From positions 239,452 to 303,451 of the forward strand of contig CAWEKE010000001.1 of the NCBI GenBank assembly GCA_963809565.1: DNA of 64,000 nucleotides, in the 5' to 3' direction. This DNA is from an uncultured Gammaproteobacteria bacterium (lineage in GTDB: Bacteria > Pseudomonadota > Gammaproteobacteria > Steroidobacterales > XN24). Positions 13,298 through 37,880 of the stretch are shown here, in pieces. A program made the position numbers and the translations under genes. Position 1 is the first letter of the stretch, and each line of letters starts with the position of its first letter. The notes under the pieces were generated by a model that was given only the letters and a program-made list of their open reading frames with translations, ran no database searches and was not told the DNA's origin.

Positions 13298-13317
13298 TGT
13301 TCACCTCCGCCCGGTGA

Positions 13318-14970: not shown

Positions 14971-16757
14971 CGCTGCCCGGCGATGCTCACGCCCTCGCCT
15001 TGGCGCAGCGTGTGATAACGACTTGTCGCCAATTGCGGAAAGCGCTCCTCGGTCCCGTCAGGCCAGACAATATGCACATCGCGCTTACCGCCGGCGGTCC
15101 CCAGGCCAAATAGAACGCGCGGATCGTTGGCCGAGGCATAGCTGCCATCCGCACGCACCCGGCTCCAGCGTCTGGGGTCGGCGATCAATTCAACCCTGGC
15201 GCCGAGCGCATCGCGGCCGCCGCTGGCAGTGATCAGCCTCAGGCCGAGCCACTCATTGCGGTCGCCGACCAGGTTCTGCAGCACACGCGCGGGGCCGGCG
15301 TTGTTGGAGATCAGCACATCCGTATCGCCGTCGTTGTCGAGGTCGCCGAACGCGGCGCCGCGACTTACCCGCAACGCCTGAAATGCCGGCCCGGCGCTGG
15401 CGCTGACGTCCGCGTAACGGCCATCGCCGAGATTGTGAAACAGCTGATTGGCTTGCCGTAATGGCAGCAGTTCATCCGCCAGCATCTGCTCTTCGATCGC
15501 AGTGACGGCGCCATTGACTACCAGTAAATCCAGCCAGCCGTCGTTGTCATAGTCGATCCAGCCGGTACCAAACCCCGTCGAGGCAAAGCTGGGGCCCGCC
15601 AGACCCATGGCTACGGTCCGGTCCTGGAACCAGCCGTTGCCGTCATTCACGTACAGGGTATTGGTCTCGCGCGCCAGATGAGTCATGAACAGATCTTCGT
15701 CACCGTCGCCGTCAAAATCCGCAGCATCGACGCCCATGCTGGCTTCCGGACTGCCATCCATGTTGACGCTGACACCGGCAAGGACCGCATCGTTGATGAA
15801 CCGTCCATGCTGGTCGTTGATCCAGAGCTGGTTGGGTACGCCGTCATTGGCAACATAAATATCCGGCCAGCCGTCACCATTAAAGTCCGCGGCGATGACG
15901 CCGAGCGCGCCGCCGAAATCGCCACGGATGCCGACCTTGAGGCTGACATCTTCGAACGTCCCGTCGCCGCGATTACGAAACAGGCTGTCTGGCAGCGGTT
16001 CATAGACCAGCGGTGAACAGTAGTCCCGGGCGCTGGTGGATGAGCGGCAGGGCTTGGCATTGGCCAGGGAGAAATCCACGTAATTACCGACATAGAGATC
16101 GAGCCAGCCGTCTCGGTCATAGTCCAGCCAGGCCGCGCTGACGCTCCAGCGCGGGTCGTCGACCCCGGCTTTTGCAGTCACGTCAACGAAACGGCCATTG
16201 CCGGCATTGCGCCATAGCTGATTGGAGCCAAAGTTGGTCACATACAGATCGGGGCGACCATCGTTGTCATAGTCAGCCACCGTCACGCCCATGCCGTAAC
16301 CAGTCGCGTTCAGACCGGATTGTGCGGTGACGTCGACAAACTTCAGCTGCCCGTCTGCGCTGTCGTTACGGTACAGCCGGTCGGTCAGCGGCAATGGATG
16401 GCGCGGTTTGAACGTCGCCTCGCTGAGCGGCTTGTCGCCCAGCATGTGACCCTGGACCAGATAGAGATCCAGATCGCCGTCCCCGTCGTAGTCGAGCAAT
16501 CCGGCACCCGAGCCCATCATCTCGGTGAAATAGAGCTCCCCGCTCATGCCATTGAAGTGTTCAAACTCGAGACCGGAGGCCTCGGTGACATCAGCGAAAA
16601 TCGGCTCCGCGCGGACCGCGGCCGATACCAGCAACAGCCCTCCGAAAAGCGCTATCGCGCAGCGGGTGGCGGGCCTGCCTGTGCGCCTGAACGGCTTGTG
16701 AAACAAGGACTTTGACATCGACAATTGCGCTGACTTCGGGGCGCGAAAGCATACCAC
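14967..16757 (-). CDS. CRTAC1-family protein (FG-GAP/VCBS repeats + ASPIC/UnbV domain), secreted
   Basis: Signal-like N-terminus (AIALFGGLLLVSAAVRA). Repeated Ca-binding FG-GAP loops: LDYDGDGDLDLYLV, ADYDNDGRPDLYVT, LDYDRDGWLDLYVG, ADFNGDGWPDIYVA, ADFDGDGDEDLFMT, IDYDNDGWLDLLVV, GDLDNDGDTDVLIS. C-terminal UnbV/ASPIC-like segment (GARVELIAD..YASANDPRVLFGLG..VHIVWPDGTEERF). The maximal ORF starts at GTG 16757; ATG 16718 (MSKSLFHK..) is a plausible alternative. Confidence 0.85.
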   Translation of the reverse strand: MVCFRAPKSAQLSMSKSLFHKPFRRTGRPATRCAIALFGGLLLVSAAVRAEPIFADVTEASGLEFEHFNGMSGELYFTEMMGSGAGLLDYDGDGDLDLYLVQGHMLGDKPLSEATFKPRHPLPLTDRLYRNDSADGQLKFVDVTAQSGLNATGYGMGVTVADYDNDGRPDLYVTNFGSNQLWRNAGNGRFVDVTAKAGVDDPRWSVSAAWLDYDRDGWLDLYVGNYVDFSLANAKPCRSSTSARDYCSPLVYEPLPDSLFRNRGDGTFEDVSLKVGIRGDFGGALGVIAADFNGDGWPDIYVANDGVPNQLWINDQHGRFINDAVLAGVSVNMDGSPEASMGVDAADFDGDGDEDLFMTHLARETNTLYVNDGNGWFQDRTVAMGLAGPSFASTGFGTGWIDYDNDGWLDLLVVNGAVTAIEEQMLADELLPLRQANQLFHNLGDGRYADVSASAGPAFQALRVSRGAAFGDLDNDGDTDVLISNNAGPARVLQNLVGDRNEWLGLRLITASGGRDALGARVELIADPRRWSRVRADGSYASANDPRVLFGLGTAGGKRDVHIVWPDGTEERFPQLATSRYHTLRQGEGVSIAGQR

Positions 16758-23371: not shown

Positions 23372-23839
23372 TCAGCTGTCGGCCACCAGCGGACCTTCGG
23401 TGAGCTCCCAGATTTCTTCCCGCTCTACCAGGCCATAGAGCCCTTCTGCCTGACCGCGCAGGCCGGCCGCCACCTTCTGCCAGTCCACATCATCACCCGG
23501 CGATGCGTCGCCTTTGGAGCCGAGCTGTTCGAGGCGGGCGCTTTGCAGCTGCCATTTCATTACGAAATGACGCGCAGCGTCGCGCGCGGTATCCGCGACT
23601 TCCATATCGACATGATCCGAAGGGATATCTACCCCTGAAATCACCCAGTAGGCGCGGTTCCTGTTTGCCTGAGACCAGGCCTTGCCGATGAACAACTGGT
23701 GCGGCAGTGTCCACACGGCATGGCCGACGACTTCATCCTGGATCAGGTCGCTGTTGCGAACATGTTGCGCCATGTTCTGTAACTGTCCCTTTGCCCATTC
23801 GGCATAGGCCTGCAATTCCTGTTCGTTCCTGAATGCCAT
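23372..23839 (-). CDS. conserved hypothetical cytoplasmic protein (possibly DUF4826-like)
   Basis: 155-aa ORF with coding-like composition and no signal peptide. The family assignment is from memory only and is weak. Confidence 0.55.
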   Translation of the reverse strand: MAFRNEQELQAYAEWAKGQLQNMAQHVRNSDLIQDEVVGHAVWTLPHQLFIGKAWSQANRNRAYWVISGVDIPSDHVDMEVADTARDAARHFVMKWQLQSARLEQLGSKGDASPGDDVDWQKVAAGLRGQAEGLYGLVEREEIWELTEGPLVADS

Positions 23840-23860: not shown

Positions 23861-25549
23861 TTACTGCCCAGCCTGGTCTGCTGGCCTGGCCCCGTCTGCC
23901 ATCGGCGTGAGGACAGGCGGCGGACCCTGCACCGGCCGCGGCTTGAATACCTCGGCGTCGGGGCTCCAGGCCTGCCGGGCCGGCTTGTTCTCCTGATACA
24001 AAGCCATATTGGTCTGTAGCCATTCCAGGTCTGCATCCTTATCGGTCTTCAGGGCTTCGAAGATAGCCTGCGCCTGAAAATCCACCGCGGCGTTGAACTT
24101 GCCATTGGCCGCCGAGGCCATCGCCAGGGTCTCCGCGTTGCGCATGCTCGGGTTCTTCAGATACAGCGCAGTCGCGGTCTCCAATGCCTGAATCTTCTGC
24201 TCGTCGGTACTGTCATCACAGATTGCAAATGCCCTGGTCGCGGCCACCACCATCTGCTCATCACCGGGGCTCAGTTTCAGACCCCTGGCCAGAACAGGAT
24301 GCGCCCACTGGCAATCGCCGGATGCCAGCCACGCCATACCCAGCAGATAGGTCACCTCTGCATTTGTCGGCAGCACATGCGCGATCTGTCCGTAGTTCTC
24401 TCCTGCCTCGGAGAACGCTTTGCGTCGCATCAGGCTGTTGGCCAGCAACAGACGCGGCTCGACCAGCTGGGGCTCCGCCTCCAGCGCCTTGCGATAAGCG
24501 ACCTCGGCCTCGGCGTCATTGCCGGTCTGCTCGAACAGCAAGCCGACGAAATAGTTTGCTTTCGCATTGTCCGGCTCGATGGCCAGCAGCCGCGAGAACG
24601 CGACCATCGCCGCGTCCAGCCGGCCCGTGGCCGCGTTCATCTCGCCGAGGTTCATCAGCGCCTCGATGTTGCCCGGCTGGATCGATGCGGCAAGCTCATA
24701 GGCCTGAATAGCCGCATCCGGGCTGTTGTATTGCCTTGCCTGGGCCGCCGCTGCCATATAGCGGTCAAAGTCTCCCGTATGCGAGCGAACAAACGTCATC
24801 AGCGGATCGTCAACGCGCGGTTTGCGATCTCCCGATTTGGCCTGCTCGCTTGCCGCCTTGCTGTCTTCGCCCATCGCCCGATACACCGCCGCCAGTTGCC
24901 CGTGGATCGAATTCGCCTCGGGATCGAGATCCAGCGCTTTTTGCAGCGCATCCAGGGCCTCAGCGTATTTACCCTGAAGGAACAGCGCCTGGCCGAGTCC
25001 AGCCAGCGCGGCCGGGTCGTCAGGATTGCGCCGGACGGCAACGAAAAACCCGGTTTCCGCTTCCTCGGGCTGATTCAGCAACAGCTGCATCTGGCTGCGA
25101 TGGATCAGCGCCGGGGTGAAGCTGAAGGCCAGATCCAGTGCATGACCAAAGCTGGCGGCGGCGGCCTCCGGATCACCGGTCTGTTCGTAGTGGATGCCGA
25201 GCAGATAGGGCCACCGTGGATTAGTCGTGTCCAGAGCCATGGCATTGTAGAAACAGGCTCCGGCCGCTGCTTGCTGACCGTTGGCCAGATAATTGATCCC
25301 CATGCGCCCATAGGCCAGTCCCAGCGGGACCCCTTCCAGACTCATGCGCTGATCGCGAAAAAAATCGACCGCCGGCTGCAAGCGCCGGCTGACCTCCGGA
25401 TCAAGCTTCGACAGATCGGGATGAGGCACCAGCTTGAGGTCGGGCAGATTGGCTTCCTGTTGCGCCGACACCTGGGCCAGCGGCGCAATCAGAAGCACCA
25501 GAACCGCGGTCAGCGCCAGGCAAAATGAAGTTCTCAGGGTATTTTTCAT
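23861..25549 (-). CDS. secreted TPR-repeat protein (second copy of this type)
   Basis: Signal peptide (CLALTAVLVLLIAPLAQVSA) followed by TPR repeats throughout. Same architecture as 13318-14970. Confidence 0.85.
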   Translation of the reverse strand: MKNTLRTSFCLALTAVLVLLIAPLAQVSAQQEANLPDLKLVPHPDLSKLDPEVSRRLQPAVDFFRDQRMSLEGVPLGLAYGRMGINYLANGQQAAAGACFYNAMALDTTNPRWPYLLGIHYEQTGDPEAAAASFGHALDLAFSFTPALIHRSQMQLLLNQPEEAETGFFVAVRRNPDDPAALAGLGQALFLQGKYAEALDALQKALDLDPEANSIHGQLAAVYRAMGEDSKAASEQAKSGDRKPRVDDPLMTFVRSHTGDFDRYMAAAAQARQYNSPDAAIQAYELAASIQPGNIEALMNLGEMNAATGRLDAAMVAFSRLLAIEPDNAKANYFVGLLFEQTGNDAEAEVAYRKALEAEPQLVEPRLLLANSLMRRKAFSEAGENYGQIAHVLPTNAEVTYLLGMAWLASGDCQWAHPVLARGLKLSPGDEQMVVAATRAFAICDDSTDEQKIQALETATALYLKNPSMRNAETLAMASAANGKFNAAVDFQAQAIFEALKTDKDADLEWLQTNMALYQENKPARQAWSPDAEVFKPRPVQGPPPVLTPMADGARPADQAGQ

Positions 25550-25690
25550 GAATCTGATTTCCCGTTCCCGGTGTCGGGAACTCCGTCCTCCATTATGGCG
25601 GTTTCGCTCCGCTTACGCAGAATTCATCATCGTGGAAGGATGACCGTGGCGGAATCCGGAACACGCGCTCCCGCAAGACGCGAGAGGGGA

Positions 25691-27574
25691 TCAGGTAGCC
25701 GGACGCCCGCCTCCGGGCGCCGCCTGCTCGATGACCAGTTCCTGGCCTGCCTCGATGCCCTCGAGGACCTGAACAGTCCCGTCTGGCCAGTGGATCTCGA
25801 GCCGCAGCGCCGATTGTGAGTCTCCGAGCCCAAAAGTCTGGACAAGTTCCGTCTGCGACAGATAACTCCGCGCGCTGTTTATCTGGCGCTCCTGAAGCCG
25901 CTCGCCCTCGGCCAGCACCAAGCGCGCACCGACAGCGCCGGTGTTCGGGGCTGTTCCGCGCAAGCGCACACGCAGCCATCGATGTCCCAGCACCTGATCA
26001 TTGCGCAACAGGTGCGGCGCGCCACCGACCTGGGTGATCACCACGTCAAGATCGCCATCGCTATCGATGTCTGCGTAGCTGGCGCCCCGGCCCACCATGG
26101 GTTGCGTCAGATCGCCAGTATTCGCAGCCGGCATTGGAATGAATTGCCGGTCGCAATCATATCCGCAATTCCAGAACAACTGTGCGGACTGGGCATGCTG
26201 CTGGCTGGGTTGAACACGGTTGATCTCATCCTCGACGTGACCGTTGGCCTGCAACAGATCCAGACGTCCGTCCAGATCGGCATCAAACAGGAACAGGCCG
26301 AAACTCAGCACGCTGCGGCTGGCCGGGCCGATACCGGTAACGATGGCTTCATCGTTGAACAACACGCTGCGCGCCGGATCGACAAAAAACGAGGTCATCT
26401 CGTTGGCGAAATTGCCCATCGCCACAGCATATTCGCCCTGATCGCCGATGCGGCCGCCGTCGATACCCATCGCGCCGGTGGCGCTGCCGGTGTTGTCAAA
26501 AGCCAGCCCGGCATTGACGCCCTGCTCCTCGAACTGTCCACCGACGTTGCGAAACAGGAAGTTACGCACGGTGTCGTTGGCCACTACCAGGTCCGTCCAG
26601 CCATCCAGATCCAGGTCCTCGGCCAACACCGCCAGGCCCTTGCCGACCGGGACGCCGGTATCGGCGTTGCGCACATGGATGCCGCTTCCGGCACCAAGCT
26701 CGGTGAATCGACCCTGGCCGTCATTGCGAAACAGATAGCTGTCGGTGCCGGCAAAATTCGTCGGCGGGCCATAGGCACGGCCAATCCCCGCGAGGCGATA
26801 GTCGACCTCGAAATCCAGTTCCCGCGACCACTGCACGTAATTCACCACGAACAGGTCCAGGTCACCGTCCCGGTCGTAATCAAGAAACGCCGCGCTGCTG
26901 CTCCAGGTGTCGGCACCGCCGGCGACGCCGGCTTTCGCGGTCACATCCTCGAAGCGGCCGTCGCCGAGATTCCGCAACAGCCGATTGGGGCCGACCGCGG
27001 TCAGGTAGACATCGACCCGGCCGTCGCCATCATAGTCGCCGGTGGCAATCCCCATCCCGTACAGCGGCTTGTCCAGGCCCGAGCCGGCAGTGACATTCTG
27101 AAATTGTCCCCCGCCGAGATTCCGATACAGCTCGGGCGTCGATGGCCGGTCTGAATCTTCCGACCAGGGCCAGGCAGTCGAGTTGACGAACAACAGATCG
27201 GGCAGATCGTCCTGGTCCAGCGAAAAGAACGCGACGCCACCACCCATGGTCTCGGGCAACAGCCGTTCGCCGGCAGCGCCGCTGTCATGGTGAAAACTGA
27301 TACCCGCAGCGCCGGTGATGTCGGTAAACGGGATCTGCGGAGCGTCCGGCTCAGCCACCGTGACCGCGGGTTTCGACAGGGCCTGCTCGTTCACCGGGGC
27401 CTGTTCGGCGGGCCGGCCGCGCCACCAGAGCATTGCCGATACCAGCGCGATGAAAACGACGATCGCGATCAGCGACCGGCGCAGTGCAACGCCGATGACT
27501 GCGTCATCCTGGACCAGATCCGTTTCCGGGTCCCGGTCATCGGTCAAGGCTGGCTCAACGGGTTCCTGTCTCAA
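25691..27574 (-). CDS. CRTAC1-family protein (FG-GAP/VCBS + ASPIC/UnbV), N-terminally membrane-anchored
   Basis: N-terminal TM segment (LIAIVVFIALVSAMLWW). FG-GAP loops: GDYDGDGRVDVYLT, LDYDRDGDLDLFVV, EDLDLDGWTDLVVA, FDADLDGRLDLLQA, ADIDSDGDLDVVIT. UnbV-like C-terminus (GARLVLAEGERLQERQINSARSYLSQTELVQTFGLG..LEIHWPDGTVQVL). ATG overlaps the upstream stop (27571-27574). Confidence 0.85.
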   Translation of the reverse strand: MRQEPVEPALTDDRDPETDLVQDDAVIGVALRRSLIAIVVFIALVSAMLWWRGRPAEQAPVNEQALSKPAVTVAEPDAPQIPFTDITGAAGISFHHDSGAAGERLLPETMGGGVAFFSLDQDDLPDLLFVNSTAWPWSEDSDRPSTPELYRNLGGGQFQNVTAGSGLDKPLYGMGIATGDYDGDGRVDVYLTAVGPNRLLRNLGDGRFEDVTAKAGVAGGADTWSSSAAFLDYDRDGDLDLFVVNYVQWSRELDFEVDYRLAGIGRAYGPPTNFAGTDSYLFRNDGQGRFTELGAGSGIHVRNADTGVPVGKGLAVLAEDLDLDGWTDLVVANDTVRNFLFRNVGGQFEEQGVNAGLAFDNTGSATGAMGIDGGRIGDQGEYAVAMGNFANEMTSFFVDPARSVLFNDEAIVTGIGPASRSVLSFGLFLFDADLDGRLDLLQANGHVEDEINRVQPSQQHAQSAQLFWNCGYDCDRQFIPMPAANTGDLTQPMVGRGASYADIDSDGDLDVVITQVGGAPHLLRNDQVLGHRWLRVRLRGTAPNTGAVGARLVLAEGERLQERQINSARSYLSQTELVQTFGLGDSQSALRLEIHWPDGTVQVLEGIEAGQELVIEQAAPGGGRPAT

Positions 27575-30384
27575 TCGCCTGTGATCCTCGAGATCTGTTC
27601 CTGAAGTCCATAGGCGCCAGCGCGCTGCAGATCGTAGATCACGACCGGCTCGGCGGCGTGGTTCGCCGCGTCATTGTTTCGGCGCGCCAGCGCAATCGCC
27701 CGGTCGCGGGCATTGTCGTCGGTTTTATAGCGCGCATGAAGCGCACGCTGGATCTCAGCTTGCTGCTCCTGCCCTGTGCGTGCATAGATCTGGGCCAGAC
27801 CCCAATGCGCCTCGGCATTCTCCGGATCCAGCTGCAGCACTCGTTGATAAGTTGCCACCGCTTCATCCAGCAACTGTTGCGCGCGCTCCGCGGCGGCGCT
27901 TCCGCGCAGTGCCCGCGCGCGCTCGAACAAGGTCCCGGCAAACTCATTCAGTGCCCGGTAATCACGGCTGAAATCCAGACCCCGCGCGCGCGCATCGACA
28001 AAACGCGTCTCCAGCACGCTGCGCATACCGTCGATAGCCTGGTCCAGATAGCCGTTCTGCCGATCCAGCAGTGCGGTAAACCAGGCCACGGTCCACGGGT
28101 ACGCCGGCGGATCAAAACCAATGGCCCGATCCAGCGCGGCGCGAGCATCATCCAGTCTGCCTTCTCGAAGGTAGACCCGGGCAAGATTCAGCGCTCCGTG
28201 AGACTGGCCCATGAACTCGACCGCGGCAAACGCCTCCTCCGCCTGGCGCAGTTCGCCGGTGCCGCGCTTGCGCAGCAAGCCGATACCGTAGTCGTTCAGC
28301 CGCTGCCACGCCGCTATATCGGGTGCGGGCTGTGCGGGCGGCGCTGGCCCGCCGGCAACCGGGAATACGATCTCATCGCTGGCAATTTCTACCACCGGCA
28401 GGTCATTGCGCCGGAATTCGTCACCCTGGAAGTACTGCAGATACGTCGTGTCGAATTTCCGATAGTTGAGGCGCGCTCTTACCACCACCGGCTCGCTCAC
28501 CCACGCGGGCACGGTCAGCCGATAATGCACCACATCGGCGGCGCCCGGCGGAATCTGGTTGTTGTACAGCGCGGTGAAAATGTCCTCGGCGTTGCGGCGA
28601 TCGATACGCCGGCCATCCCGGTCAACGACCCAGGAATTCACAAAATGAGACCAGGGATCGACCCGCCGCTGCTCAGGCTCCATGGCGCCGCTTCTGCCGA
28701 TCAGCGCGTCGCCGCTATAGACCTCGACGTCAACCCATATCTGGTTAGAGTCCGAGGTGCCCTGGGTAAACAGGTGACCCAGCGTCAGCGTCCGGATCAC
28801 AGTCTCCAGCAAGTAACTCTCACCAGGCACCAGCGCCGGCACCTGCGGCCGCAGCGGGGCATGCAGCGCGCCGTCGACACTGCCCCCTTGCTTCAGACCG
28901 ACAATGTCCAGGCGTAAGGAACCCTGGAGAAATTCGCGATGCGCCTCGATCACCGATTCCGGCAGCCCCAGAAGGTAAGGAATGGCAGTGTTGGCCGAGG
29001 GAAACTGGTGATCGTGGACCTGGAGCTCGCCGCTGTCGTCAAGCTGCCGCGCGCCAAAGTCATCGGAGACAAGGGCGGGCATATGGCAGCCGTTGCAATT
29101 TTCCTGCGCCCGCTCGGGGTAATAAAAGCTCTGTGTGCTGTGACCGGAGACGCCGCTGAGCAGGAAGCTGTCGTAGTGATTCTGTCCGCGCAGCCAGCGA
29201 TAGCCATTAAGGGCTTCCGGTAGCCCCACCTTGTGGCAAGTGCCACAAAATTCCGGGCTGCGATGCAGTGGCTTGAGGAAGGTCTTGCGGTGAAACTCCG
29301 GCTTGGCTTTGATCAGCGCCCGGTTTATCCATTGCAGGGCCGCATTTTCAGAATAGACAAACGGGTAATGCAGCGGCTCCTCGATGGTGTAATCCGCATT
29401 GCCGCGCGGACTGTTGATGTGGGTGATCGCATGGCAGCCGGTACAGGTGATGCCTGCCTGTGCGGTCGGATGGCCAACATCGTCGAATTCCGGGTCGTCG
29501 AAAGCGCCGGAGAAAAACGGCACCAGATCGTGACATCCGGCGCAAAAGCGCGAGGCTTGAACGTCGCCGTCGCGTTCCAGCATGGCCTGACGCGTGTTAC
29601 GTACCGAGAACAGGTAGGCAGGATTGTTAAACGACGCAAAGCGATGGACGCTGTGGGACCATCGTTGATGAATGTCGCCGTGGCATTCGGCACAATACTG
29701 ATCCTGCATCAGCGCCCGTGCCGGGATGAAATTGCCGCTGGCGGTACGCGCAAGAGAGGGCTGGAAGTACCGCTCTCCCGAGGCCGGTCCTGCCTGGTCC
29801 CAACGCCTTGGATCCTGTGCCTGGACGACGATCAACAGCGCAGAAAACAGCACTGCGACCAAGGCTACGGTCGCCCCTGCACGCCAGTTGATCGCACTCC
29901 CCGCCAGCCTGTGCAATACGAAAAGCCAGATCGCGGCCAGCGGCGTGATCACATGCAGCCAGTAAGCGAGGTTTCGCGCTGCCGGGGCACGCACCTCGAT
30001 CACCGGGATGCCGCGGGTCAGCACCAGTCCGCTGACTATCAGCAGCAATGCGACGCTGAACAAGGCATAGCCCACGGCCACGGCGCGACGGTTGGGCCGG
30101 TGGCGAGCTACCTTCAGGTGCAGGACCCCGTAGACGACCACCGGAAGCACCAGAATCAGCCCCAGCACCAGGTGTCCGAGAAACATCAGCTGGTAGAAAT
30201 ATCCCTGAAACGTCTCGCCACGCAGCCATTCCAGCAGCGTCACGCCGCCAAGATAGCCGGCATTGATAGTCAGCAGCGAAAACAGGCCGAAAACCACGTA
30301 GAGCAACTTGCGCAGACGCGGGCCCACGACCGGAACATATTTCCGTCGGCGTGCAGGTCCTGTTTGAGCTCGCTGGGTCATCAC
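27571..30384 (-). CDS. polytopic membrane domain + pentaheme c-type cytochrome + C-terminal TPR fusion protein
   Basis: About five N-terminal hydrophobic helices (several with His), then five CXXCH motifs (CAECH, CAGCH, CTGCH, CGTCH, CNGCH), then a TPR-like C-terminal third. Both ends overlap the neighbouring genes by 4 nt. Confidence 0.85.
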   Translation of the reverse strand: MMTQRAQTGPARRRKYVPVVGPRLRKLLYVVFGLFSLLTINAGYLGGVTLLEWLRGETFQGYFYQLMFLGHLVLGLILVLPVVVYGVLHLKVARHRPNRRAVAVGYALFSVALLLIVSGLVLTRGIPVIEVRAPAARNLAYWLHVITPLAAIWLFVLHRLAGSAINWRAGATVALVAVLFSALLIVVQAQDPRRWDQAGPASGERYFQPSLARTASGNFIPARALMQDQYCAECHGDIHQRWSHSVHRFASFNNPAYLFSVRNTRQAMLERDGDVQASRFCAGCHDLVPFFSGAFDDPEFDDVGHPTAQAGITCTGCHAITHINSPRGNADYTIEEPLHYPFVYSENAALQWINRALIKAKPEFHRKTFLKPLHRSPEFCGTCHKVGLPEALNGYRWLRGQNHYDSFLLSGVSGHSTQSFYYPERAQENCNGCHMPALVSDDFGARQLDDSGELQVHDHQFPSANTAIPYLLGLPESVIEAHREFLQGSLRLDIVGLKQGGSVDGALHAPLRPQVPALVPGESYLLETVIRTLTLGHLFTQGTSDSNQIWVDVEVYSGDALIGRSGAMEPEQRRVDPWSHFVNSWVVDRDGRRIDRRNAEDIFTALYNNQIPPGAADVVHYRLTVPAWVSEPVVVRARLNYRKFDTTYLQYFQGDEFRRNDLPVVEIASDEIVFPVAGGPAPPAQPAPDIAAWQRLNDYGIGLLRKRGTGELRQAEEAFAAVEFMGQSHGALNLARVYLREGRLDDARAALDRAIGFDPPAYPWTVAWFTALLDRQNGYLDQAIDGMRSVLETRFVDARARGLDFSRDYRALNEFAGTLFERARALRGSAAAERAQQLLDEAVATYQRVLQLDPENAEAHWGLAQIYARTGQEQQAEIQRALHARYKTDDNARDRAIALARRNNDAANHAAEPVVIYDLQRAGAYGLQEQISRITGD

Positions 30385-33300
30385 CGCGCAGATTGATAAC
30401 GGGTGTTGTACTGCTGGTGAAGTTCTTCCCGCCGCATCTCTGCGGCATCGTCTCCCAGAGCGCTGCGCGGCAACGGGCCCAGCTGCCCGCCGTCACGGGT
30501 AAACAGATCCATGTCCTTGGCCCAGCCCCGGGCTTCGAGCACGAACCTGCGCGTCCAGTCATGCGCCACTGCATCTGGTGCATTGAACTCAAGGTGCACC
30601 TCTTCACCGGAGCCGATAATCGCTACCGCATCGTCTGCCTGCTCAAGCAACGGTTCCACGGGGCCTGTCCGGGTGTAAAAGCCGTCGAGATAACGGGCGT
30701 CCCAGAACGCATCGCGCACCTGATAATCGTAATCAGGCACGCGCTGGGCTGCCGTAGTTCTTGTCGCAAAGCCGGTAATCGCCAGACGCGCGGCTGTCGG
30801 AGTCATCACTTGATGGACCATCGCCGGCGGCGCGTCTTCCTCGAATACGATACGAATACGATCCCAATACACTTCGAGATTGGTCGACAGGCGCAACGCA
30901 ACTGTCTTTGCTGGCAGGTCGCCCAGCGGCAGGGCCATCTCCCTCGGCATCCCGGCCGGATAGCCGAAGCCGGTGTAGACGCGATGCCAGACGCCATCGA
31001 CGCTCAGCGCATCCAGACTCGGGGCCTGGTAATCAGCGCCAGCCTGCCAGGCGGCAAACACGGTCTGCGAATACGGGTATTCGACCCAGCCATCGGCGAC
31101 CAACACCGGGCGACTGCCGGCCGGATTGATTTCACGGTCAAATTCGAGCAGCAAACGATGTTCCTGTTGCAGGCGGCCGATAAACCGATGATCGACCTCG
31201 CCCACCGGCGCCGCCACACGGTCAGCGGTCCTGACCGTGTCGAGGACGTCCTCACCGCCGGCATTGCTCGCGGATACCGGGCTGAGGCTGCGCTCGGGAC
31301 GGAAAAAGATCGGGCGGCCGGTGACCGCCGGACCGCCTGTGGCCATGCGCTCATCGACGGCCATGTCCCAGCCTGGCGGCAAATCGAACCCATGCAGCCG
31401 CACCACATCGAGATAAGCGCTCTCCTCCATCGGCTCCGCTATCTTCAGCGCGTAAACCCCTTCCTTTGGCACCAGGCTGCCTGCGGGCATCAGAAAATAC
31501 TCCCACGGTCGCGGCTCGGCATACTCTCCCGGCGCAACCAGAAAACCCAAACCTCCGACGCCGAGCACGTCGCTGACGAAGCCGTAATGCGTCCCGTTCC
31601 AGGCAAATATCACCGGACAGCTGGACAGCTGACGCTGGGTCTCGGCGATCCGGTGCAATTCGCCCTGAGCCAGAGACAATTCGGTCTGGAACACGCCGTC
31701 GGACCAGTCTATCGCCACATAGTCAGCGGCAGGCAATCCGGCCAGACCCATCAGCAAGGGCTGCAGACTTTGACCCGGCGCGGAATTGTGATCCAGCGTG
31801 GTGGTCATGGTCCAGCGATCGAGCAGGCGCAGGGACACCCGGGTGCCGATGCCGGAACGATTCGAACGCATGGAGTCGGCCTTGTCTTCCTTGCCGCTGA
31901 AGCTCAGGCCCAGAAACGGCAGGCGCCCGGGCCCCGGCGGCCAGCGTCTCAGGGCTTCTTCGGTCGGCGCTACGATTTCCGGGCCGGCCTGGATATCGGC
32001 ATTCAATATCAGCAGCGGCCCGGTCAGCCCGGCGCTGTCCTGCAATTGCAGCATGCCGCCGGCATGGTGGCGGATCGAAACGCCGGCGCTGCTGGCGATG
32101 ACAAGTTTCAGACTGCCGTCACCGTCAAAATCGGAGACCGCAAGCTGCGGCTTACTGCCGGCAACGGTGTCCAGTGTATCCAGGGACCAGGACCCCGGAC
32201 GCCAGCTCCAGCGCAACAAGCGTCCGTCTTCGTCCACTGCGTAGATCTCGGGGCGGCCATCGCTGTCCAGGTCGGCGATGGCCGCGGCCTGCAGCGATGC
32301 CTGGCGAAAACTGTCCAGCCCGGTCGCCCGGCGATATTCCCAGAGCCGGTCGTTGATCCAGATATCATTGCCGCCGCCTTCGTTCACCACAATCAGGTCG
32401 AGATCCCGGTCCAGGTCCAGATCAGCGGCGAGAAACTGGCGGCCGGCACCAGCACCGGCGATCCCCTGGCTGGCCCCGAGGCGACGAAAACTGCCGTTGC
32501 CGTTGTTGCTGAACAGCTCGTCCGGCCCATCCGCATTGACCACGAATATGTCGAGATCGCCGTCATGATCTGCATCGATCATGCCGCCATCCACACAGTC
32601 TCCGGCATCATCCGTCGCGGTGTCCGCGCCACGCTCGCGCCACTCGCCCCGGTCCGCGCCCAGCCATAGCTGGTTAGGTCCCTTCCGGCACAGATACAGA
32701 TCCAGATCGCCATCGTTGTCGACATCGCCCCACAATGCGGCGGTGGCGTTGCGGATTCCGGCCAGCGGATGATCCGCGAGATCCGCAAAGCGCCCGTCCG
32801 CCTGGCCGATGATCACGCGCGTGCCGACGGTCGTGGCGGCAAAGATGTCGAGGACGGTATCGGCATCGATGTCGGCAGCCGTCAGCGACAAGACCTGGCC
32901 GCTGATGTCGGCTGCGAGCGGCACCGCCTGCGCGAACAGCGGGCCGGGCGGAAGCGTCGCCGGTTCTATCCGCTCGCGACCCACTGCAAGCGCCTCGGCC
33001 TTGGGACCCAGTTTCGTGTATTTGAACTCGGCCAGACGCGCCCGCGGATTGTCCGCAAATCGCTCGTAAACGGCGAGCATGTCCCGGGCCTCCTGCGGCT
33101 GTCCCGTCCGGCGCAGCACCAGGGCAGCACCGTAGTAGGCGCTGCGCAGATACGGATCCAGATCGATGGCGCGACGGTACCAGTCCAGAGCGCCTTCCAT
33201 GTCGCCCTGCTGCAGCAACGCCTGGCCGGAGAAATATGCGGCATAGGCATCCTCCGGATCGCCCGCGGTCACGACATTCAAGTGCTCCAGCGCCGCGGCC

Positions 33301-33671
33301 GTGTCGCCCAGATACAGTCGCAGCAGACCGGTAATGTAATTGGCACGCAGATCATCCGGTTCCGCTGCCAGCACCGTGGCAACGATGTCCAGTGCGCGTT
33401 GTTCATCACCCTCCTGCTGGCGATTCAGCGTAGCGATGGCGAGATTAAGACGCGCATCACGCCAGTCCGGATTTCTTTGCGCAACTTGCTCAAACGTATC
33501 TCGGGCCGCCGCATAGTCGAAATTACCCATCAGCGCGACGCCGCGATTATTGGCTGCGATGTCCGCTGCGCTGATGTCGTCATCAGCCCTTTCGCAACCA
33601 GTGCCTGAGAGCAAACTCAGCAGGACCGGTATCGCCCACAGCGGGCCGGACATTCCTCTTGCTGCGGTCAT
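30381..33671 (-). CDS. large secreted (possibly lipoprotein) TPR + FG-GAP/VCBS + UnbV-like protein with a long uncharacterised C-terminal region
   Basis: Signal peptide with a possible lipobox (LLSLLSGTGC). N-terminal TPRs. FG-GAP loops: GDVDNDGDLDLYLC, IDADHDGDLDIFVV, ADLDLDRDLDLIVV, ADLDSDGRPEIYAV, SDFDGDGSLKLVIA. UnbV-like segment (GIGTRVSLRLLDRWTMTTTLDHNSAPGQS). I recognise no family in the final ~450 aa. Confidence 0.8.
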   Translation of the reverse strand: MTAARGMSGPLWAIPVLLSLLSGTGCERADDDISAADIAANNRGVALMGNFDYAAARDTFEQVAQRNPDWRDARLNLAIATLNRQQEGDEQRALDIVATVLAAEPDDLRANYITGLLRLYLGDTAAALEHLNVVTAGDPEDAYAAYFSGQALLQQGDMEGALDWYRRAIDLDPYLRSAYYGAALVLRRTGQPQEARDMLAVYERFADNPRARLAEFKYTKLGPKAEALAVGRERIEPATLPPGPLFAQAVPLAADISGQVLSLTAADIDADTVLDIFAATTVGTRVIIGQADGRFADLADHPLAGIRNATAALWGDVDNDGDLDLYLCRKGPNQLWLGADRGEWRERGADTATDDAGDCVDGGMIDADHDGDLDIFVVNADGPDELFSNNGNGSFRRLGASQGIAGAGAGRQFLAADLDLDRDLDLIVVNEGGGNDIWINDRLWEYRRATGLDSFRQASLQAAAIADLDSDGRPEIYAVDEDGRLLRWSWRPGSWSLDTLDTVAGSKPQLAVSDFDGDGSLKLVIASSAGVSIRHHAGGMLQLQDSAGLTGPLLILNADIQAGPEIVAPTEEALRRWPPGPGRLPFLGLSFSGKEDKADSMRSNRSGIGTRVSLRLLDRWTMTTTLDHNSAPGQSLQPLLMGLAGLPAADYVAIDWSDGVFQTELSLAQGELHRIAETQRQLSSCPVIFAWNGTHYGFVSDVLGVGGLGFLVAPGEYAEPRPWEYFLMPAGSLVPKEGVYALKIAEPMEESAYLDVVRLHGFDLPPGWDMAVDERMATGGPAVTGRPIFFRPERSLSPVSASNAGGEDVLDTVRTADRVAAPVGEVDHRFIGRLQQEHRLLLEFDREINPAGSRPVLVADGWVEYPYSQTVFAAWQAGADYQAPSLDALSVDGVWHRVYTGFGYPAGMPREMALPLGDLPAKTVALRLSTNLEVYWDRIRIVFEEDAPPAMVHQVMTPTAARLAITGFATRTTAAQRVPDYDYQVRDAFWDARYLDGFYTRTGPVEPLLEQADDAVAIIGSGEEVHLEFNAPDAVAHDWTRRFVLEARGWAKDMDLFTRDGGQLGPLPRSALGDDAAEMRREELHQQYNTRYQSAR

Positions 33672-34666
33672 TTCGCATCTCCGCGCAGCGCTTTCTTGGC
33701 CCGCGCAATACGCTGCTCGAGCGAGGCAATGTCGATCTCGCCGGGATCAGCCGGCGCCAGGCGGCGGGTTTGCAGGTAAGTATAAAGCTCTGAGCGCAAA
33801 TGGGCGCGCATGTCATGACCCCGGCGGCGTTCACGTTCCTGGCGCAGGCGTCCGATGTCTATCGGCGCCACCACGACTTTCTCACCCGGACCGGGCTCGG
33901 CCTGGGCCAGAATGCGCCCGTCATAGTCGACAACCATGCTCGCTCCCGGCCAGCTGAACGGGGGATAGTTGCTCATCGCCGCCCCCTGGTTGGCGGCTAC
34001 GACATAAGCGGTGTTTTCCAGTGCCCGGGTACGATTGATCAGGGTCCACCAGTCCATCGGTTCGCTCGCGCCCCAGGGATCCATGTAGGCCGAGATGCGC
34101 ACCAGGATCTCGGCCCCGCGGAAGCTCAATTCGCGGATGGTCTCCGGGAACAACCAGTCATAACAGGTCGCGACCGCGATTTTACCCAACTCGGTATCGG
34201 CCACCGGAAACGGATCCGGCTGATAGTCCGGGATGTCGTGCGGACTGGCATGCACTTCCCAGGGAATCCACGGATTGACCTTGCGGTATTTGCTCAGCAC
34301 GCCATCGGCTCCGATCAGCACCGTGGTATTGAACACATGCTCGGGATAATCCGGGTCGCTTTCCAGGAACGAACCAGTCTGGATATAGCAGCCGAACTGG
34401 CGCGCGAGCGCTGCGTACCGCTCGGTGAACTCGTTGGGTACAGGCAGCGCCAGCTTGCGACGCAATTCGCCGACACTCTGATAGATCGGCACGGCATGCG
34501 CGAACTCCGGGAATGCCAGCAGTCTGACATCGAAAAACGGCTCGTAGCCGACGACAGTCTGGGCGACCATTTCACACATTCGCTCGACCCGGGAGGAGAT
34601 TTCTTCGCGGGTCTGCGCTGCGGGGAAATCGGTCTGACAGGCTGCAGCGTAAAACAAGTTACTCAT
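33668..34666 (-). CDS. carbon-nitrogen hydrolase (nitrilase superfamily, amidase-like)
   Basis: Glu-Lys-Cys triad contexts: LLAFPEFA, SKYRKVNPW, KIAVATCYDWLFPE. Start chosen at ATG 34666 (MSNLFYAAACQ..). The stop overlaps the start of the downstream gene by 4 nt. Confidence 0.85.
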   Translation of the reverse strand: MSNLFYAAACQTDFPAAQTREEISSRVERMCEMVAQTVVGYEPFFDVRLLAFPEFAHAVPIYQSVGELRRKLALPVPNEFTERYAALARQFGCYIQTGSFLESDPDYPEHVFNTTVLIGADGVLSKYRKVNPWIPWEVHASPHDIPDYQPDPFPVADTELGKIAVATCYDWLFPETIRELSFRGAEILVRISAYMDPWGASEPMDWWTLINRTRALENTAYVVAANQGAAMSNYPPFSWPGASMVVDYDGRILAQAEPGPGEKVVVAPIDIGRLRQERERRRGHDMRAHLRSELYTYLQTRRLAPADPGEIDIASLEQRIARAKKALRGDAK

Positions 34667-34810
34667 CTGTCTTTTTGACCCCGGTTGGCAACAGCGGCAG
34701 GCGGCGGATGCGTAAGACTGAATTTGTATTCTAAACGTTGCGTCGCCGCAGGCGCAGCGGGAGCGGCGCATGGCGATGCGGAAGTCTTTGTACTATAGTC
34801 TTGAGCTGAA

Positions 34811-34828
34811 CTTGTCGTTTTCGACAAG
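34811..34828 (+). promoter_or_regulatory. inverted repeat CTTGTCG-TTTT-CGACAAG in a divergent promoter region
   Basis: Perfect 7-bp arms with a 4-nt spacer, followed by CAATGTTTTTT, located 39 nt upstream of ATG 34867. It could be an operator or a leader hairpin. Confidence 0.3.
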
Positions 34829-34866
34829 CAATGTTTTTTAGTCAGGAACCCCGGGAGACTTCGTCG

Positions 34867-35568
34867 ATGACCAATCACCTCAGCGATCTGGAAAAGGCGT
34901 TCCATGACGCCCGTGCCCAGTTTTCCAAATCCGCCAGTCAGACCTACAAACGACTTAATCGTGAGCTGCAGGCCCTGATCAAGCGCGGCAACCGCTCCGC
35001 GGCAAGGGTGAAGTCACTGCGGCAGCGCTTGCAGGCCCAGGCCGAGCGGGCCGCGCGTACCGGCACCAAGGCAGCGCAGCAGCAGATGAAGAAGCTGGAC
35101 AAGATGCTCGCGGATGCTCGCGACGAGCTGCGCATCACTGAAGAAGACAAGCGCCGGGTACGCCAGCTGGCAACCGATGCCCGGGCGTATTTCATCAAGG
35201 CCACGCATACCGAAAAGGCGTTTGCCGCCCTCGAGAAGGAGTGGGCGAAGGCTTTCGGCGAAACGAAAAAGCCGGCGCGCAAGAAGAAAGCCGCCAAGAA
35301 GAAGGCTGCGAAGAAGAAAGTGGCAAAGAAGAAGGGCGTCGCGAAGAAGCGTACCGGCGGCAAGAAGAAGACCGCTGCCCGGAAGAAGGCGACAGCGAAA
35401 AAACGGCCGGCCGCGAGGAAGAAACCGGCAGGCAAGAAGAAGGCTGCGAAGAAGAAAGCGACGACCAAGCGGCGTCCGGCGCGGAAGAAGACCGCCGCCA
35501 AAAAGCGCCCCGTCAGTCGCAAGAAGGCGAGCAGCAAGAAGCGCGTGTCGAAAAAGCGCAGCGCCTGA
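34867..35568 (+). CDS. histone H1-like / AlgP-type lysine-alanine-rich nucleoid-associated protein
   Basis: GGGAG lies 9 nt upstream of the ATG. The N-terminal ~130 aa look like a helical or coiled-coil domain. The C-terminal 100 aa consist of KKAAKKK / ARKK repeats. Confidence 0.8.
   Translation: MTNHLSDLEKAFHDARAQFSKSASQTYKRLNRELQALIKRGNRSAARVKSLRQRLQAQAERAARTGTKAAQQQMKKLDKMLADARDELRITEEDKRRVRQLATDARAYFIKATHTEKAFAALEKEWAKAFGETKKPARKKKAAKKKAAKKKVAKKKGVAKKRTGGKKKTAARKKATAKKRPAARKKPAGKKKAAKKKATTKRRPARKKTAAKKRPVSRKKASSKKRVSKKRSA
35266..35565 (+). repeat. AAG/GCN-rich degenerate tandem coding repeats (KKAA-type tail)
   Basis: Repeated aagaagaaagc(c/g)gc(c/g)aagaagaag units are visible in the DNA and create spurious ORFs in all other frames. 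Confidence 0.8.
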
Positions 35569-35660: not shown

Positions 35661-37880
35661 TCAGAATGGCCGCCCGAGAATCAGGTACGCAGAAGAATGG
35701 CCGCCCTCGGCAGTGCCTGCACCAAGATACAGAGGACCGATGAACGAATCCACGCCGAGGAACAGACTGCCCGCGCCTCGCATGTTGGCCAGATTCAGAT
35801 TATTGGTGGCGTCCCCGTATTCGAGTGATCCGCCGACAAACACTGGCAATAGCGCCGAATCGTTGATCCGCCGGTAATAGATGATTTCCGCCAGCGCGAA
35901 TGCTTCACCGGAAAGCGCGTTGTTCTCGAAACCGGACAGGTTCAGGAACCCGCCGCCGCGGTACAGCGCATAGATCGGCGGATCCCCCCTGACGGTTTGC
36001 TCGAAACGAAGCTGAGGCAGGAGCGTGTTGCGGCCCCAGGTAAACGCACGTCTGAATTCCGCCCGTACCTGATCAAAACCCGAATCCTCGCCGAGTTCGG
36101 ACCGATGCACCGTGTAACGCACTACTCCGCTGTAGCCCCGGGTGGGGAAATTCACGTTGTTCAGACGATCGACGCTGAACTGGAGAAACACAGAGCCGGA
36201 GTTGAAGTCCTGGGTCGGCAGTGTTGCGGGATCGCCGACCCGTCGGCTGGCATTGACCCAGCGACGCGTGTAGCCGACCCTGACCTCGCCATAGGTGGAT
36301 AGTTCGCGTCCTCCCGCAAGTTCCAGCTGCCAGTTAGTCAGCCGGTATTCGCCGATCTTGTCGTCGGCATTGTCATCAAAGATATTGATGCTGCTCTTGC
36401 CGAAAGATACGGAAGGATTGATGAAGTAACGCAGGTCCCGGTCCAGCGGCTGGTACCACTCCGTCCCGAGGCCGGGGTCCTGACCGATCCCGCCAAAACT
36501 GCGCCACTCCGCACCGAGTCGGTTGAGGCCGGTCCTCAGATATGCCACTCGCAGGTTGTACTGGTTGTCGCCCTCGAAATCGTCTTCCAGCTGCAGGCCG
36601 AATTGCAGGTAGTCCGGGCCCCAGGGCTTGGCGCTGCCTTCCACCACCACACCGCTGCGACCGTCCTCCTGGACAATTTCGTAAGAGACTTTTTCGAATA
36701 CGTCGAGGCCATAGATGCGACCAACATCCCGATCCAGCTTGTCAGCGTCCAGGGGCTCGCCGATACGCTGCCGGATCATGCCCGAGAGCAGCCCCGGATC
36801 CAGCCCGGCGTTATTCTCCACCCGGATGAACTCCACGACCGGCACCCCCGCCGGTCGGCTGGCCCGCCGCGCCAGCCACTGCTGATATTCGTCCTCCGGC
36901 ACCGACAGGGCACTGAGCTGCTCACGCAGCCTTGAGGCCGCCTCGTAACCAGCCGGCACCGCTTCGATGGCGCGGTCGAAGTCGGTGGAGCCGATATCAC
37001 CCAGGTCCGGGATGATCTGGATATCCCGCTCGTCCAGCGTCGCCAGCTGGGCCTCGGTATTTCCGCGGGTCATGATGTTGATCAGCTGGTCAGTGATGCT
37101 GATCAGCGAATCGACCTCCTGAGGATCACGCAATGGCGTGCTGATATCGACGACGATCAGGATTTCGGCACCCATGTCTCGCGCCACGTTGACCGGCAGG
37201 TTGTTGGTGACACCACCATCGACCAGCAGGCGGCCATCCAGCTTGAGCGGAGCGATGGCCCCGGGAACCGACATACTCGCGCGCATCGCGTCCGCCAGGT
37301 TGCCGTTGCCGATGACGTAGGTGGTGCCCGCACCGATGTCAGTGGTCACCGCGCGGAAGGGGATGGGCAGGCGATCAAAATCCGATACTCCGGATACCGG
37401 CAGGGTCAGGTCGCGCAACAACAATCCTATCTTCTGTCCCTGGATCAATCCGGCCGGCAGCTCCAGTTCGGCTCCGCGCAGATCGACTCCGGGCTTCGCC
37501 TTGACCGGCAGCAAGCGATCATCGCCCTTACGTCTGAAGCTCCGATCCTTACGCTCCTCACGATCGTCCAGGACTGCTTCCCAATCTATCGCCTGCAGCG
37601 CGGCCAGGATTTCTGCGGGACTCATGCCTGACGCGTAAAGCCCGCCGGCGGTCGCCCCCATACTGGTCCCGGCGATGTAATCAATCGGCACCCGCATTTC
37701 CTCCAGGACCTGCAACACGCCCACATGCGCGCCGCCGCGGGCGCCGCCGCCGCTGAGTACCAGACCTACTGTAGGTCGCGCCGGCTGTTCTGCGCTGTCT
37801 GGCGTGTCGGCGCCAGCTGGTGGGGCCAGAACAAGACTGAACATCAGGATTGCCCGGATATGAGTTCGCAGGAACATCAC
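35661..37880 (-). CDS. patatin-like phospholipase with POTRA/Omp85-type C-terminal beta-barrel (PlpD-like, type Vd secretion architecture)
   Basis: Signal peptide. Patatin motifs: LVLSGGGARGGAHVGVL (oxyanion), GTSMGA (GxSxG), DGGVTNNLP (DGG). The C-terminal ~400 aa are beta-strand-rich and end in ..YLILGRPF (terminal aromatic). Confidence 0.9.
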   Translation of the reverse strand: MMFLRTHIRAILMFSLVLAPPAGADTPDSAEQPARPTVGLVLSGGGARGGAHVGVLQVLEEMRVPIDYIAGTSMGATAGGLYASGMSPAEILAALQAIDWEAVLDDREERKDRSFRRKGDDRLLPVKAKPGVDLRGAELELPAGLIQGQKIGLLLRDLTLPVSGVSDFDRLPIPFRAVTTDIGAGTTYVIGNGNLADAMRASMSVPGAIAPLKLDGRLLVDGGVTNNLPVNVARDMGAEILIVVDISTPLRDPQEVDSLISITDQLINIMTRGNTEAQLATLDERDIQIIPDLGDIGSTDFDRAIEAVPAGYEAASRLREQLSALSVPEDEYQQWLARRASRPAGVPVVEFIRVENNAGLDPGLLSGMIRQRIGEPLDADKLDRDVGRIYGLDVFEKVSYEIVQEDGRSGVVVEGSAKPWGPDYLQFGLQLEDDFEGDNQYNLRVAYLRTGLNRLGAEWRSFGGIGQDPGLGTEWYQPLDRDLRYFINPSVSFGKSSINIFDDNADDKIGEYRLTNWQLELAGGRELSTYGEVRVGYTRRWVNASRRVGDPATLPTQDFNSGSVFLQFSVDRLNNVNFPTRGYSGVVRYTVHRSELGEDSGFDQVRAEFRRAFTWGRNTLLPQLRFEQTVRGDPPIYALYRGGGFLNLSGFENNALSGEAFALAEIIYYRRINDSALLPVFVGGSLEYGDATNNLNLANMRGAGSLFLGVDSFIGPLYLGAGTAEGGHSSAYLILGRPF

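Follow-up and report, generated by a model that had tools for sequence, protein, structure and literature searches.

A 64,000-nucleotide (nt) stretch of DNA from an uncultured gammaproteobacterium of the order Steroidobacterales (assembly GCA_963809565.1, contig CAWEKE010000001.1, positions 239,452 to 303,451), here called the window, carries five consecutive open reading frames (ORFs) on its minus strand. In the direction of transcription they encode a hydrolase of the CN-hydrolase family, a 1096-amino-acid (aa) predicted lipoprotein, a 937-aa membrane cytochrome, a 627-aa protein of the CRTAC1 family and a 562-aa secreted tetratricopeptide repeat (TPR) protein (Table 1). The cytochrome gene and the CRTAC1 gene form a pair that is kept across at least seven bacterial phyla, and this pairing most likely marks an undescribed envelope electron-transfer machine.

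Table 1. Genes, protein domains and intergenic features of the locus, in window coordinates.
Feature	Position	Strand	Basis or remark
Divergent intergenic region 5´ of the operon	34667-34830	.	holds palindrome 34811-34828
CN-hydrolase, cytoplasmic, 332 aa from Met36	33668-34666 (longest ORF to 34771)	-	PF00795
1096-aa predicted lipoprotein: TPR, CRTAC1-like core, novel C-domain	30381-33671	-	Pfam, AlphaFold, fold match
TPR domain of the 1096-aa protein, residues ~35-215	33027-33569	-	Pfam TPR_16, TPR_2, TPR_19; helices 35-214
CRTAC1-like FG-GAP propeller and TTR-like core, residues ~245-676	31644-32939	-	FG-GAP_3, 94.5 bits; strands 250-676
Novel beta-rich C-terminal domain, residues ~677-1096 (~420 aa)	30384-31643	-	model
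937-aa membrane cytochrome: five transmembrane (TM) helices, pentahaem c, beta-sandwich, TPR	27571-30384	-	motifs, Pfam, model, alignment
N-terminal five-TM domain, residues 22-189	29818-30321	-	hydrophobic segments and modelled helices
Pentahaem c-type domain (predicted), residues ~225-440	29065-29712	-	CXXCH at 231, 281, 314, 380, 430
Novel beta-sandwich, residues ~486-680	28345-28929	-	strands 490-674
C-terminal TPR domain, residues ~692-911	27652-28311	-	Pfam TPR_11, TPR_19; predicted local distance difference test (pLDDT) ~90
627-aa CRTAC1-family protein: N-terminal anchor, FG-GAP propeller, UnbV_ASPIC	25691-27574	-	Pfam, 9etn
Intergenic gap, 141 nt	25550-25690	-	precedes the 562-aa TPR gene
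562-aa secreted TPR protein	23861-25549	-	TPR families; signal peptide segment 9-27
155-aa DUF4826 protein	23372-23839	-	PF16108, 80 bits; 21 nt 3´ of the TPR gene

The first four genes are joined by 4-nt overlaps of stop and start codons, ATGA at 33668-33671, GTGA at 30381-30384 and TTGA at 27571-27574, exactly where an earlier note on this DNA had placed them. If the cytochrome starts instead at the ATG one codon later, GTGA is replaced by TGATG and the overlap shrinks to 1 nt. The same note described the gap in front of the 562-aa TPR gene as lacking a terminator hairpin, and this agrees with our results: a terminator scan of the gap gave no terminator-like site, and RNA folding gave hairpins without a U-tract and an unremarkable z of -1.6. 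Its statement that every product except the hydrolase is exported or membrane-spanning is likewise borne out, by a scan for hydrophobic segments and by a lipoprotein leader. With a single strand, overlapping or short junctions, no internal terminator and a conserved gene order, the genes are predicted to be transcribed as one operon. Chance alone does not account for the arrangement, since its gene order and overlaps are found again in other genomes.

Homologues of the cytochrome form more than 6270 sequence clusters, and at least 597 species-representative genomes encode a relative. Among the best 80 of these, classified by record titles, 34 loci belong to Planctomycetota (including Rhodopirellula europaea) and Saltatorellus ferox, 17 to Gamma-/Betaproteobacteria and other Pseudomonadota, 16 to Acidobacteriota and eight to Verrucomicrobiota; Deltaproteobacteria, Latescibacterota and Methylomirabilota contribute one locus each, and two loci are unclassified. 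The 80 proteins are 56-82% identical to the window cytochrome over essentially their full length, and the loci sampled come from soils, sediments and waters. A look-up of the exact sequence of the window cytochrome gave no match. Synteny was followed in 82 non-duplicate loci (numbered with the prefix L below), for which the window proteins served as tblastn queries and a CRTAC1 orthologue was accepted at 50% identity or more, paralogues lying at 25-38%. A CRTAC1 orthologue stands directly downstream of the cytochrome gene, on the same strand, at 57 of the 63 loci with enough sequence, and the two genes overlap or are at most 30 nt apart at 54 of 65. The earlier note had held that a redox module is physically and functionally tied to FG-GAP/UnbV proteins; this synteny bears out the functional tie, while a physical association is something that the pairing can only suggest.

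The remaining genes follow the core pair less faithfully. The hydrolase and lipoprotein genes stand as a pair directly upstream of the cytochrome at 10 of 50 loci, including Beta-/Gammaproteobacteria, Isosphaeraceae and Phycisphaerales, and elsewhere within 10 kb at a few further loci. The four-gene unit with overlapping junctions is also present in a cultured Wenzhouxiangella and in the complete genome CP053448, both reached by searching from lipoprotein orthologues. A full-length relative of the 562-aa TPR protein occurs downstream at only six of 48 loci, all from Pseudomonadota and mostly gammaproteobacterial. The five genes that the earlier note took for a single unit are thus layered: a cytochrome-CRTAC1 core pair, a hydrolase-lipoprotein accessory pair, and a clade-specific pair formed by the last TPR gene and the DUF4826 gene that follows it, both of which are confined to gammaproteobacterial relatives. 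Surveyed across genomes, as the earlier note had proposed, synteny favours the upstream four genes in several phyla and fails for the TPR tail beyond Pseudomonadota. When the ORFs of the 82 loci were clustered all against all, no neighbour recurred apart from the four genes; what remained of the large clusters consisted of shadow ORFs antisense to GC-rich genes.

The earlier note rightly recognised five CXXCH motifs, TM segments and TPRs in the cytochrome. It overlooked the membrane domain at the N-terminus with its histidines, and this domain offers the strongest clue to the working of the module. Five hydrophobic segments (residues 27-45, 66-84, 104-122, 139-157 and 169-187) and five modelled TM helices (22-55, 62-93, 99-123, 134-161 and 167-189) make up this domain. 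His71 and His89 on TM2, and His144 and His158 on TM4, are 100% conserved in an alignment of 81 cytochromes from all sampled phyla, in which 215 of the 937 positions are at least 97% identical. The periplasmic helix ends are 9-10 residues away from His71 and His144, and the cytoplasmic ends 3-4 residues away from His89 and His158, so that the four histidines form two layers on two helices at matched depths. The same paired-histidine geometry is found in bis-His dihaem b proteins, such as cytochrome b and NarI, which carry electrons across or into the membrane. We infer that the histidines are ligands of two b-type haems. The N-terminus is strongly basic and the TM2-TM3 loop basic, which indicates an N-in topology with the haem domain outside the cytoplasm.

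The five CXXCH motifs lie beyond the fifth TM helix in what would be an exported domain, as in multihaem c-type cytochromes, and the domain matches the Cytochrome_C554 family (PF13435) at 29.3 bits (cut-off 20.8). All 15 CXXCH residues are invariant in the 81 sequences, and c-type haem attachment is predicted from these motifs. Five further histidines in this part of the protein are conserved (His247, His365, His374 and His459 at 100%, His339 at 98%), one for each motif; such a set suggests an all-bis-His wire and is less like what a catalytic haem would call for. The beta-sandwich that follows carries the loops GH.FT.GT.DSN and LYNNQIPPGA, with His537 (100%) and His620 (99%), and LY[NSD][NH]QIPPG is among the two most conserved stretches of the whole cytochrome. 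Its core is modelled with a pLDDT of ~90, its loops 535-545 and 584-613 with values below 50. The sandwich gave no Pfam or NCBIfam match to E 10 and no relative in the PDB by profile search. A fold search with the whole model retrieved TPR proteins only, since the haem domain is poorly modelled and only whole models were compared; this result has no bearing on the TM, haem and beta-sandwich domains.

The CRTAC1-family partner of the cytochrome has a single N-terminal membrane anchor (residues 26-44) and clear Pfam matches to FG-GAP_3 (98.4 bits, cut-off 26.9) and UnbV_ASPIC (61.8 bits, cut-off 23.4). Together with its similarity to the solved CRTAC1 structure 9etn (E 1.8e-19), these place it in the CRTAC1/ASPIC-UnbV family. 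In 61 orthologues 121 residues are at least 95% conserved, among them repeated D.D.DG motifs of the calcium type, from which the propeller is predicted to bind calcium. In L004 (GCA_942490605), the closest sequenced relative of the window, with a cytochrome 88% identical, four separate short ORFs of 143, 108, 183 and 63 aa (12808-14794) stand in place of an intact CRTAC1 partner gene, which may reflect assembly frameshifts or a pseudogene. Three loci (L077, L023 and L079) have ~2-10 kb of sequence downstream of the cytochrome gene and no CRTAC1 orthologue there; the label of the L077 metagenome-assembled genome (MAG), Akkermansia muciniphila, is doubtful for this cytochrome family, and mis-binning is possible.

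TPR and CRTAC1 cores have been joined repeatedly. The 1096-aa protein contains both in one chain, as does a 970-aa protein of L001, and they occur side by side as separate genes in the window itself (14967-16757 with 13318-14970) and in L085 and L086. This recurrence of fusion and adjacency suggests that the TPR domain of the cytochrome holds its CRTAC1 neighbour, and we propose that domain as the docking surface because the two kinds of core occur fused elsewhere.

We consider it reasonably probable, and hold with moderate confidence, that the core pair is an inner-membrane-anchored electron conduit linked to the quinone pool and docked through its TPR domain to a CRTAC1 propeller. The five-helix domain would exchange electrons with the quinone pool, in either direction, by way of two b-type haems held between TM2 and TM4. 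Electrons would then run along the five bis-His c-haems in the periplasm toward the beta-sandwich with His537 and His620. There the TPR domain would hold the membrane-anchored, putatively calcium-binding propeller encoded by the next gene, which could present a substrate or a partner. The lipoprotein and the cytoplasmic, amidase-like hydrolase would be an accessory pair that joins the core in some lineages.

Several observations weigh against this reading. The TM domain of the cytochrome gave no Pfam or NCBIfam match to E 10 and no PDB profile match, and so belongs to no known b-cytochrome family by these searches; no quinone-site motif was identified in it. The haem domain has a pLDDT below 50 in the AlphaFold model, at which the packing of the haems and their ligands cannot be checked. 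Among the 121 conserved residues of the CRTAC1 protein are only two histidines and no cysteine, that is, no obvious redox centre. No conserved outer-membrane component or terminal enzyme lies near the core pair, as judged from the 82 clustered loci and three annotated flanks. Lastly, an electron conduit does not explain what a cytoplasmic hydrolase would do.

The nearest functional concept, by analogy, is that of the inner-membrane quinol dehydrogenase cytochromes, to which the tetrahaem CymA/NapC/NrfH family and ImcH, CbcL and CbcBA of Geobacter belong. In CbcL, a b-type membrane domain is fused to a multihaem c domain. What the window cytochrome would share with these proteins is the role proposed for it, a membrane-anchored multihaem c protein that links the quinone pool to periplasmic transfer. 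It shows no sequence relationship to those of the families that were compared, and it differs in having a C-terminal TPR domain and an obligate CRTAC1 partner. Members of the NapC/NirT/NrfH group have four haems and a single N-terminal helix, as opposed to five haem motifs and five TM helices here, and the scores against the NrfH model TIGR03153 (11.3 bits, cut-off 134.2) and the DmsE family (18.3, cut-off 192) are far too low for membership.

The only solved relative of the haem domain is the pentahaem cytochrome c552 of Thermochromatium tepidum (PDB 5ze8; profile E 7.5e-5). Haem motifs 1-3 align and the fifth, C..CHMP, matches locally, all colinear; the haem-domain model is too poor for a comparison of folds, and the likeness is one of sequence alignment only. 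Cytochrome c552, which has no assigned function, has been grouped with Geobacter ExtKL, Gsu2801 and the PHC of cable bacteria into a pentahaem family with an Ig-like domain (PMC11976967). A beta-sandwich follows the haem motifs of the window protein too and may correspond to this Ig-like domain, but the described members are periplasmic and lack a membrane or TPR domain (PMC11976967), and the beta-sandwich of the window cytochrome has no sequence similarity to 5ze8 or any other PDB chain. Against the curated ExtKL model NF040886 the cytochrome scores 13.6 bits, far below the cut-off of 250.

A CRTAC1-family FG-GAP gene amid genes for periplasmic c-haem proteins is also found in the hydrazine-synthase (HZS)-like clusters of Planctomycetota and others, where its role is not known (PMC12758564). 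Its likeness to the window protein is one of family description. The products of those clusters are HZS alpha-like and beta-gamma-like propeller-haem proteins together with ABC substrate-binding proteins (PMC12758564); a TM-pentahaem-TPR protein is not among them. With vertebrate CRTAC1 (cartilage acidic protein 1; 9etn), the 627-aa and 1096-aa proteins share an FG-GAP calcium-binding-type propeller and a UnbV_ASPIC/TTR core. Unlike it, the bacterial proteins are membrane- or lipid-anchored and encoded next to a cytochrome, and the 1096-aa protein adds a TPR domain and a novel 420-aa domain. A transfer of function from animal CRTAC1 is unjustified.

The earlier note knew of no characterised system of this composition, and we found none either: the literature that we searched, which covered Wenzhouxiangella and the combination of UnbV/ASPIC/CRTAC1 with cytochromes, TPRs or multihaem proteins, does not describe it. 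Labels in public records are generic ("multiheme c-type cytochrome", "tetratricopeptide repeat protein", "FG-GAP-like repeat-containing protein"). We found no earlier description of the cytochrome-CRTAC1 pairing, of the membrane domain with its histidines or of three unassigned domains in these proteins.

One alternative, which we think unlikely, makes the cytochrome itself the catalyst, for instance a quinol-dependent peroxidase or a reductase or oxidase of a small N-, S- or O-compound, with its site formed by a haem and the beta-sandwich loops. CRTAC1 would then do no more than stabilise the enzyme or capture its substrate, and a product would be processed by the amidase. That these loops, with their two histidines, are the most conserved stretches of the protein would fit an active site, as would the failure of AlphaFold to place them without a cofactor; the cytochrome has a weak similarity to the catalytic multihaem protein MccSep, the core pair is self-contained in most phyla, and the amidase triad is intact. 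However, five standard CXXCH motifs with five near-invariant histidines (98-100%) as sixth ligands leave no obvious open haem, the signatures CXXCK, extra Cys and Tyr cross-link are absent from the cytochrome, and its matches to catalytic families fall far below their cut-offs.

We regard it as quite improbable that the module is the inner-membrane entry of a route of extracellular electron transfer, with metals, humics or a partner cell at its far end, much as CbcL or ImcH of Geobacter feeds ExtKL-type pentahaem cytochromes. A membrane domain with conserved histidines, joined to a multihaem c domain, would suit this, and c552, the sole solved relative, is grouped with ExtKL and Gsu2801 as proteins with an Ig-like domain (PMC11976967), the window cytochrome too having a beta-sandwich after its haems. 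But neither a conserved porin nor an outer-membrane cytochrome nor a further periplasmic cytochrome lies nearby in the clustered loci and the three flanks, the ExtKL model is missed by a wide margin, and the carrier genus Wenzhouxiangella is described as aerobic (PMC7691419).

Equally doubtful is a non-respiratory device of the envelope, in which TPR and CRTAC1 proteins form a scaffold or adhesive and the cytochrome is a redox sensor or a maturation or anchoring factor. The same genomes repeatedly contain TPR and CRTAC1 gene pairs that lack a cytochrome, TPR-sulfotransferase paralogues are numerous in the window, and the only solved CRTAC1 structure is that of a murine extracellular protein, for which we know of no enzyme activity. 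A sensor with seven haems, if the b-haems are real, would be expensive to build, and an output domain is missing; nor is an identity of ~60% across phyla usual for a scaffold. A role in cytochrome c maturation was considered for the weak matches to the CcmH/CycH-type TPR family and set aside, these matches being below cut-off, generic and typical for any TPR protein. That the five genes are merely adjacent, with incidental overlaps and no shared function, is hardly credible: four-base overlaps are common in compact bacterial genomes, but order, orientation and short junctions conserved across phyla contradict this for the four upstream genes, and it survives only for the TPR-DUF4826 tail.

Constraint of the kind seen in the cytochrome (~60% identity across phyla, 215 near-invariant positions) usually marks a central function, and the proposed conduit would offer an electron-transfer context for the abundant and unexplained CRTAC1/ASPIC-UnbV proteins of bacteria. 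Three domains, the TM domain, the beta-sandwich and the C-domain of the lipoprotein, are without relatives in Pfam, NCBIfam or the PDB. It is possible, if on balance doubtful, that the cytochrome-CRTAC1 pair represents a new, phylum-spanning class of quinone-linked periplasmic redox complex, with a new dihaem-b fold and with CRTAC1 handling the substrate. If so, a biochemical role would be assigned for the first time to the ASPIC/UnbV (CRTAC1) proteins, a very large family in bacteria; the lipoprotein C-domain and a dedicated amidase would complete a new envelope pathway. Cultured carriers (Wenzhouxiangella, Rhodopirellula europaea and Saltatorellus ferox) make the hypothesis directly testable.

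Of the accessory pair, the 1096-aa protein has a short lipoprotein-type leader with a cysteine, Cys26, conserved in at least 90% of sequences, and is likely a lipoprotein. The earlier note had labelled it TPR/FG-GAP; judged from its AlphaFold model (mean pLDDT 80.4), it is itself of CRTAC1 type. Foldseek ranks murine CRTAC1 (9etn) first among PDB folds, with an E of 2.4e-20, 550 aligned columns and a target-normalised TM-score of 0.66, and UnbV_ASPIC (PF07593) is present in homologues, the match of the window protein being below threshold. Its C-domain carries the invariant motifs ETQRQLSSCPV, EPMEE, DGWVEYPYSQT.FAAWQ, FGYPAGMPR and AKDMDL. The domain has no Pfam or NCBIfam match to E 10, and a profile search of the PDB was empty. 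At a threshold of E <= 1e-3 its family comprises 3567 cluster representatives; 150 of these were listed, and most of the 150 carry it as the C-terminal domain of a protein of ~1100 aa.

The hydrolase is a clear member of the CN_hydrolase family (PF00795, 128.8 bits, cut-off 23.2). The right end given in the earlier note, 34666, corresponds to Met36 of the longest ORF. Two observations make this start plausible: residue 42 is the first in the Pfam alignment, and the annotated length of the closest orthologue is 332 aa. The catalytic residues Glu54, Lys129 and Cys168 are intact, and 108 residues including this triad are invariant in 14 orthologues. Orthologues from different phyla are 59-89% identical and form a distinct subfamily. 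The scan for hydrophobic and export segments found none in the protein, which is predicted to be cytoplasmic while every partner is exported. Formamidases are the nearest solved structures (E 8e-26) and the best NCBIfam match (113.7 bits, cut-off 406), followed by the aliphatic amidase equivalog at 82 (cut-off 427). The hydrolase thus shares the fold and the invariant Glu-Lys-Cys triad with AmiF and AmiE, but it falls far below their equivalog cut-offs and differs in its setting. Nearly all of the 13 loci that have it place it beside the gene for the 1096-aa lipoprotein; in L057 it lies directly upstream of the cytochrome instead. The step on an amide or nitrile that the earlier note derived from this gene is unsupported as stated, its basis being the triad and a distant formamidase/amidase similarity. 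An Lnt-like lipoprotein acyltransferase was rejected as an identity for the hydrolase, given the lack of a membrane or export segment and a score of 46 bits against a cut-off of 132.9.

The clade-specific tail consists of the 562-aa TPR gene and the gene for the DUF4826 protein, probably the last of the transcription unit; no export or hydrophobic segment was found in this protein. DUF4826 follows the TPR gene at five loci (L004, L005, L006, L014 and L069). The gene that precedes the TPR relative at L014, L069 and L078 is a second CRTAC1 paralogue, not the partner of the cytochrome. The tail is a gammaproteobacterial addition. Identity of the 562-aa protein with PrsT of the PEP-CTERM system was rejected (110.5 bits, cut-off 312.2).

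At the other end of the operon, the divergent intergenic region contains a perfect palindrome with 7-bp arms (CTTGTCG-TTTT-CGACAAG, 34811-34828) that the terminator scan flagged. Because no upstream gene is there to terminate, we consider it a possible operator. The inverted-repeat search did not report this short palindrome, and an Rfam scan of the window gave no matches. The divergent gene (34831-35568, plus strand) encodes a 245-aa protein whose C-terminal half is nearly all Lys/Ala repeats (AKKKAAKKK...) and resembles histone H1 or AlgP; its first ATG directly follows the palindrome, and the true start may be further downstream. Beyond it, on the minus strand, lies a 739-aa ORF (35661-37880); Patatin and Omp85 domains are present in its 740-aa counterpart from L004.

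Downstream of the tail, eight paralogous TPR-sulfotransferase genes of 594-728 aa each occupy 1927-22608 on the minus strand. The array is interrupted by a second CRTAC1-family gene (14967-16757), which has a 4-nt overlap with the gene for a 550-aa TPR-only protein (13318-14970); the same order, CRTAC1 then TPR, is seen in L085 and L086. Elsewhere, Pfam annotation of the flanks of three distant loci gave unrelated genes only. In a Limisphaerales MAG (L052, 7168-9897, minus strand), the gene divergent from that of the cytochrome specifies, at this one locus, a 909-aa protein that combines FMN_bind, Fer4_5 and ApbE domains and is of a membrane redox or flavin-transferase type. A gene of the Epimerase_2 family (UDP-GlcNAc 2-epimerase-type) lies a few kb downstream of the module in L001 (22023-22826), L085 (19066-20271) and L086 (18017-19222), in L085 together with a DegT aminotransferase gene; the epimerase genes in these three gammaproteobacterial genomes hint at a surface-polysaccharide locus nearby.

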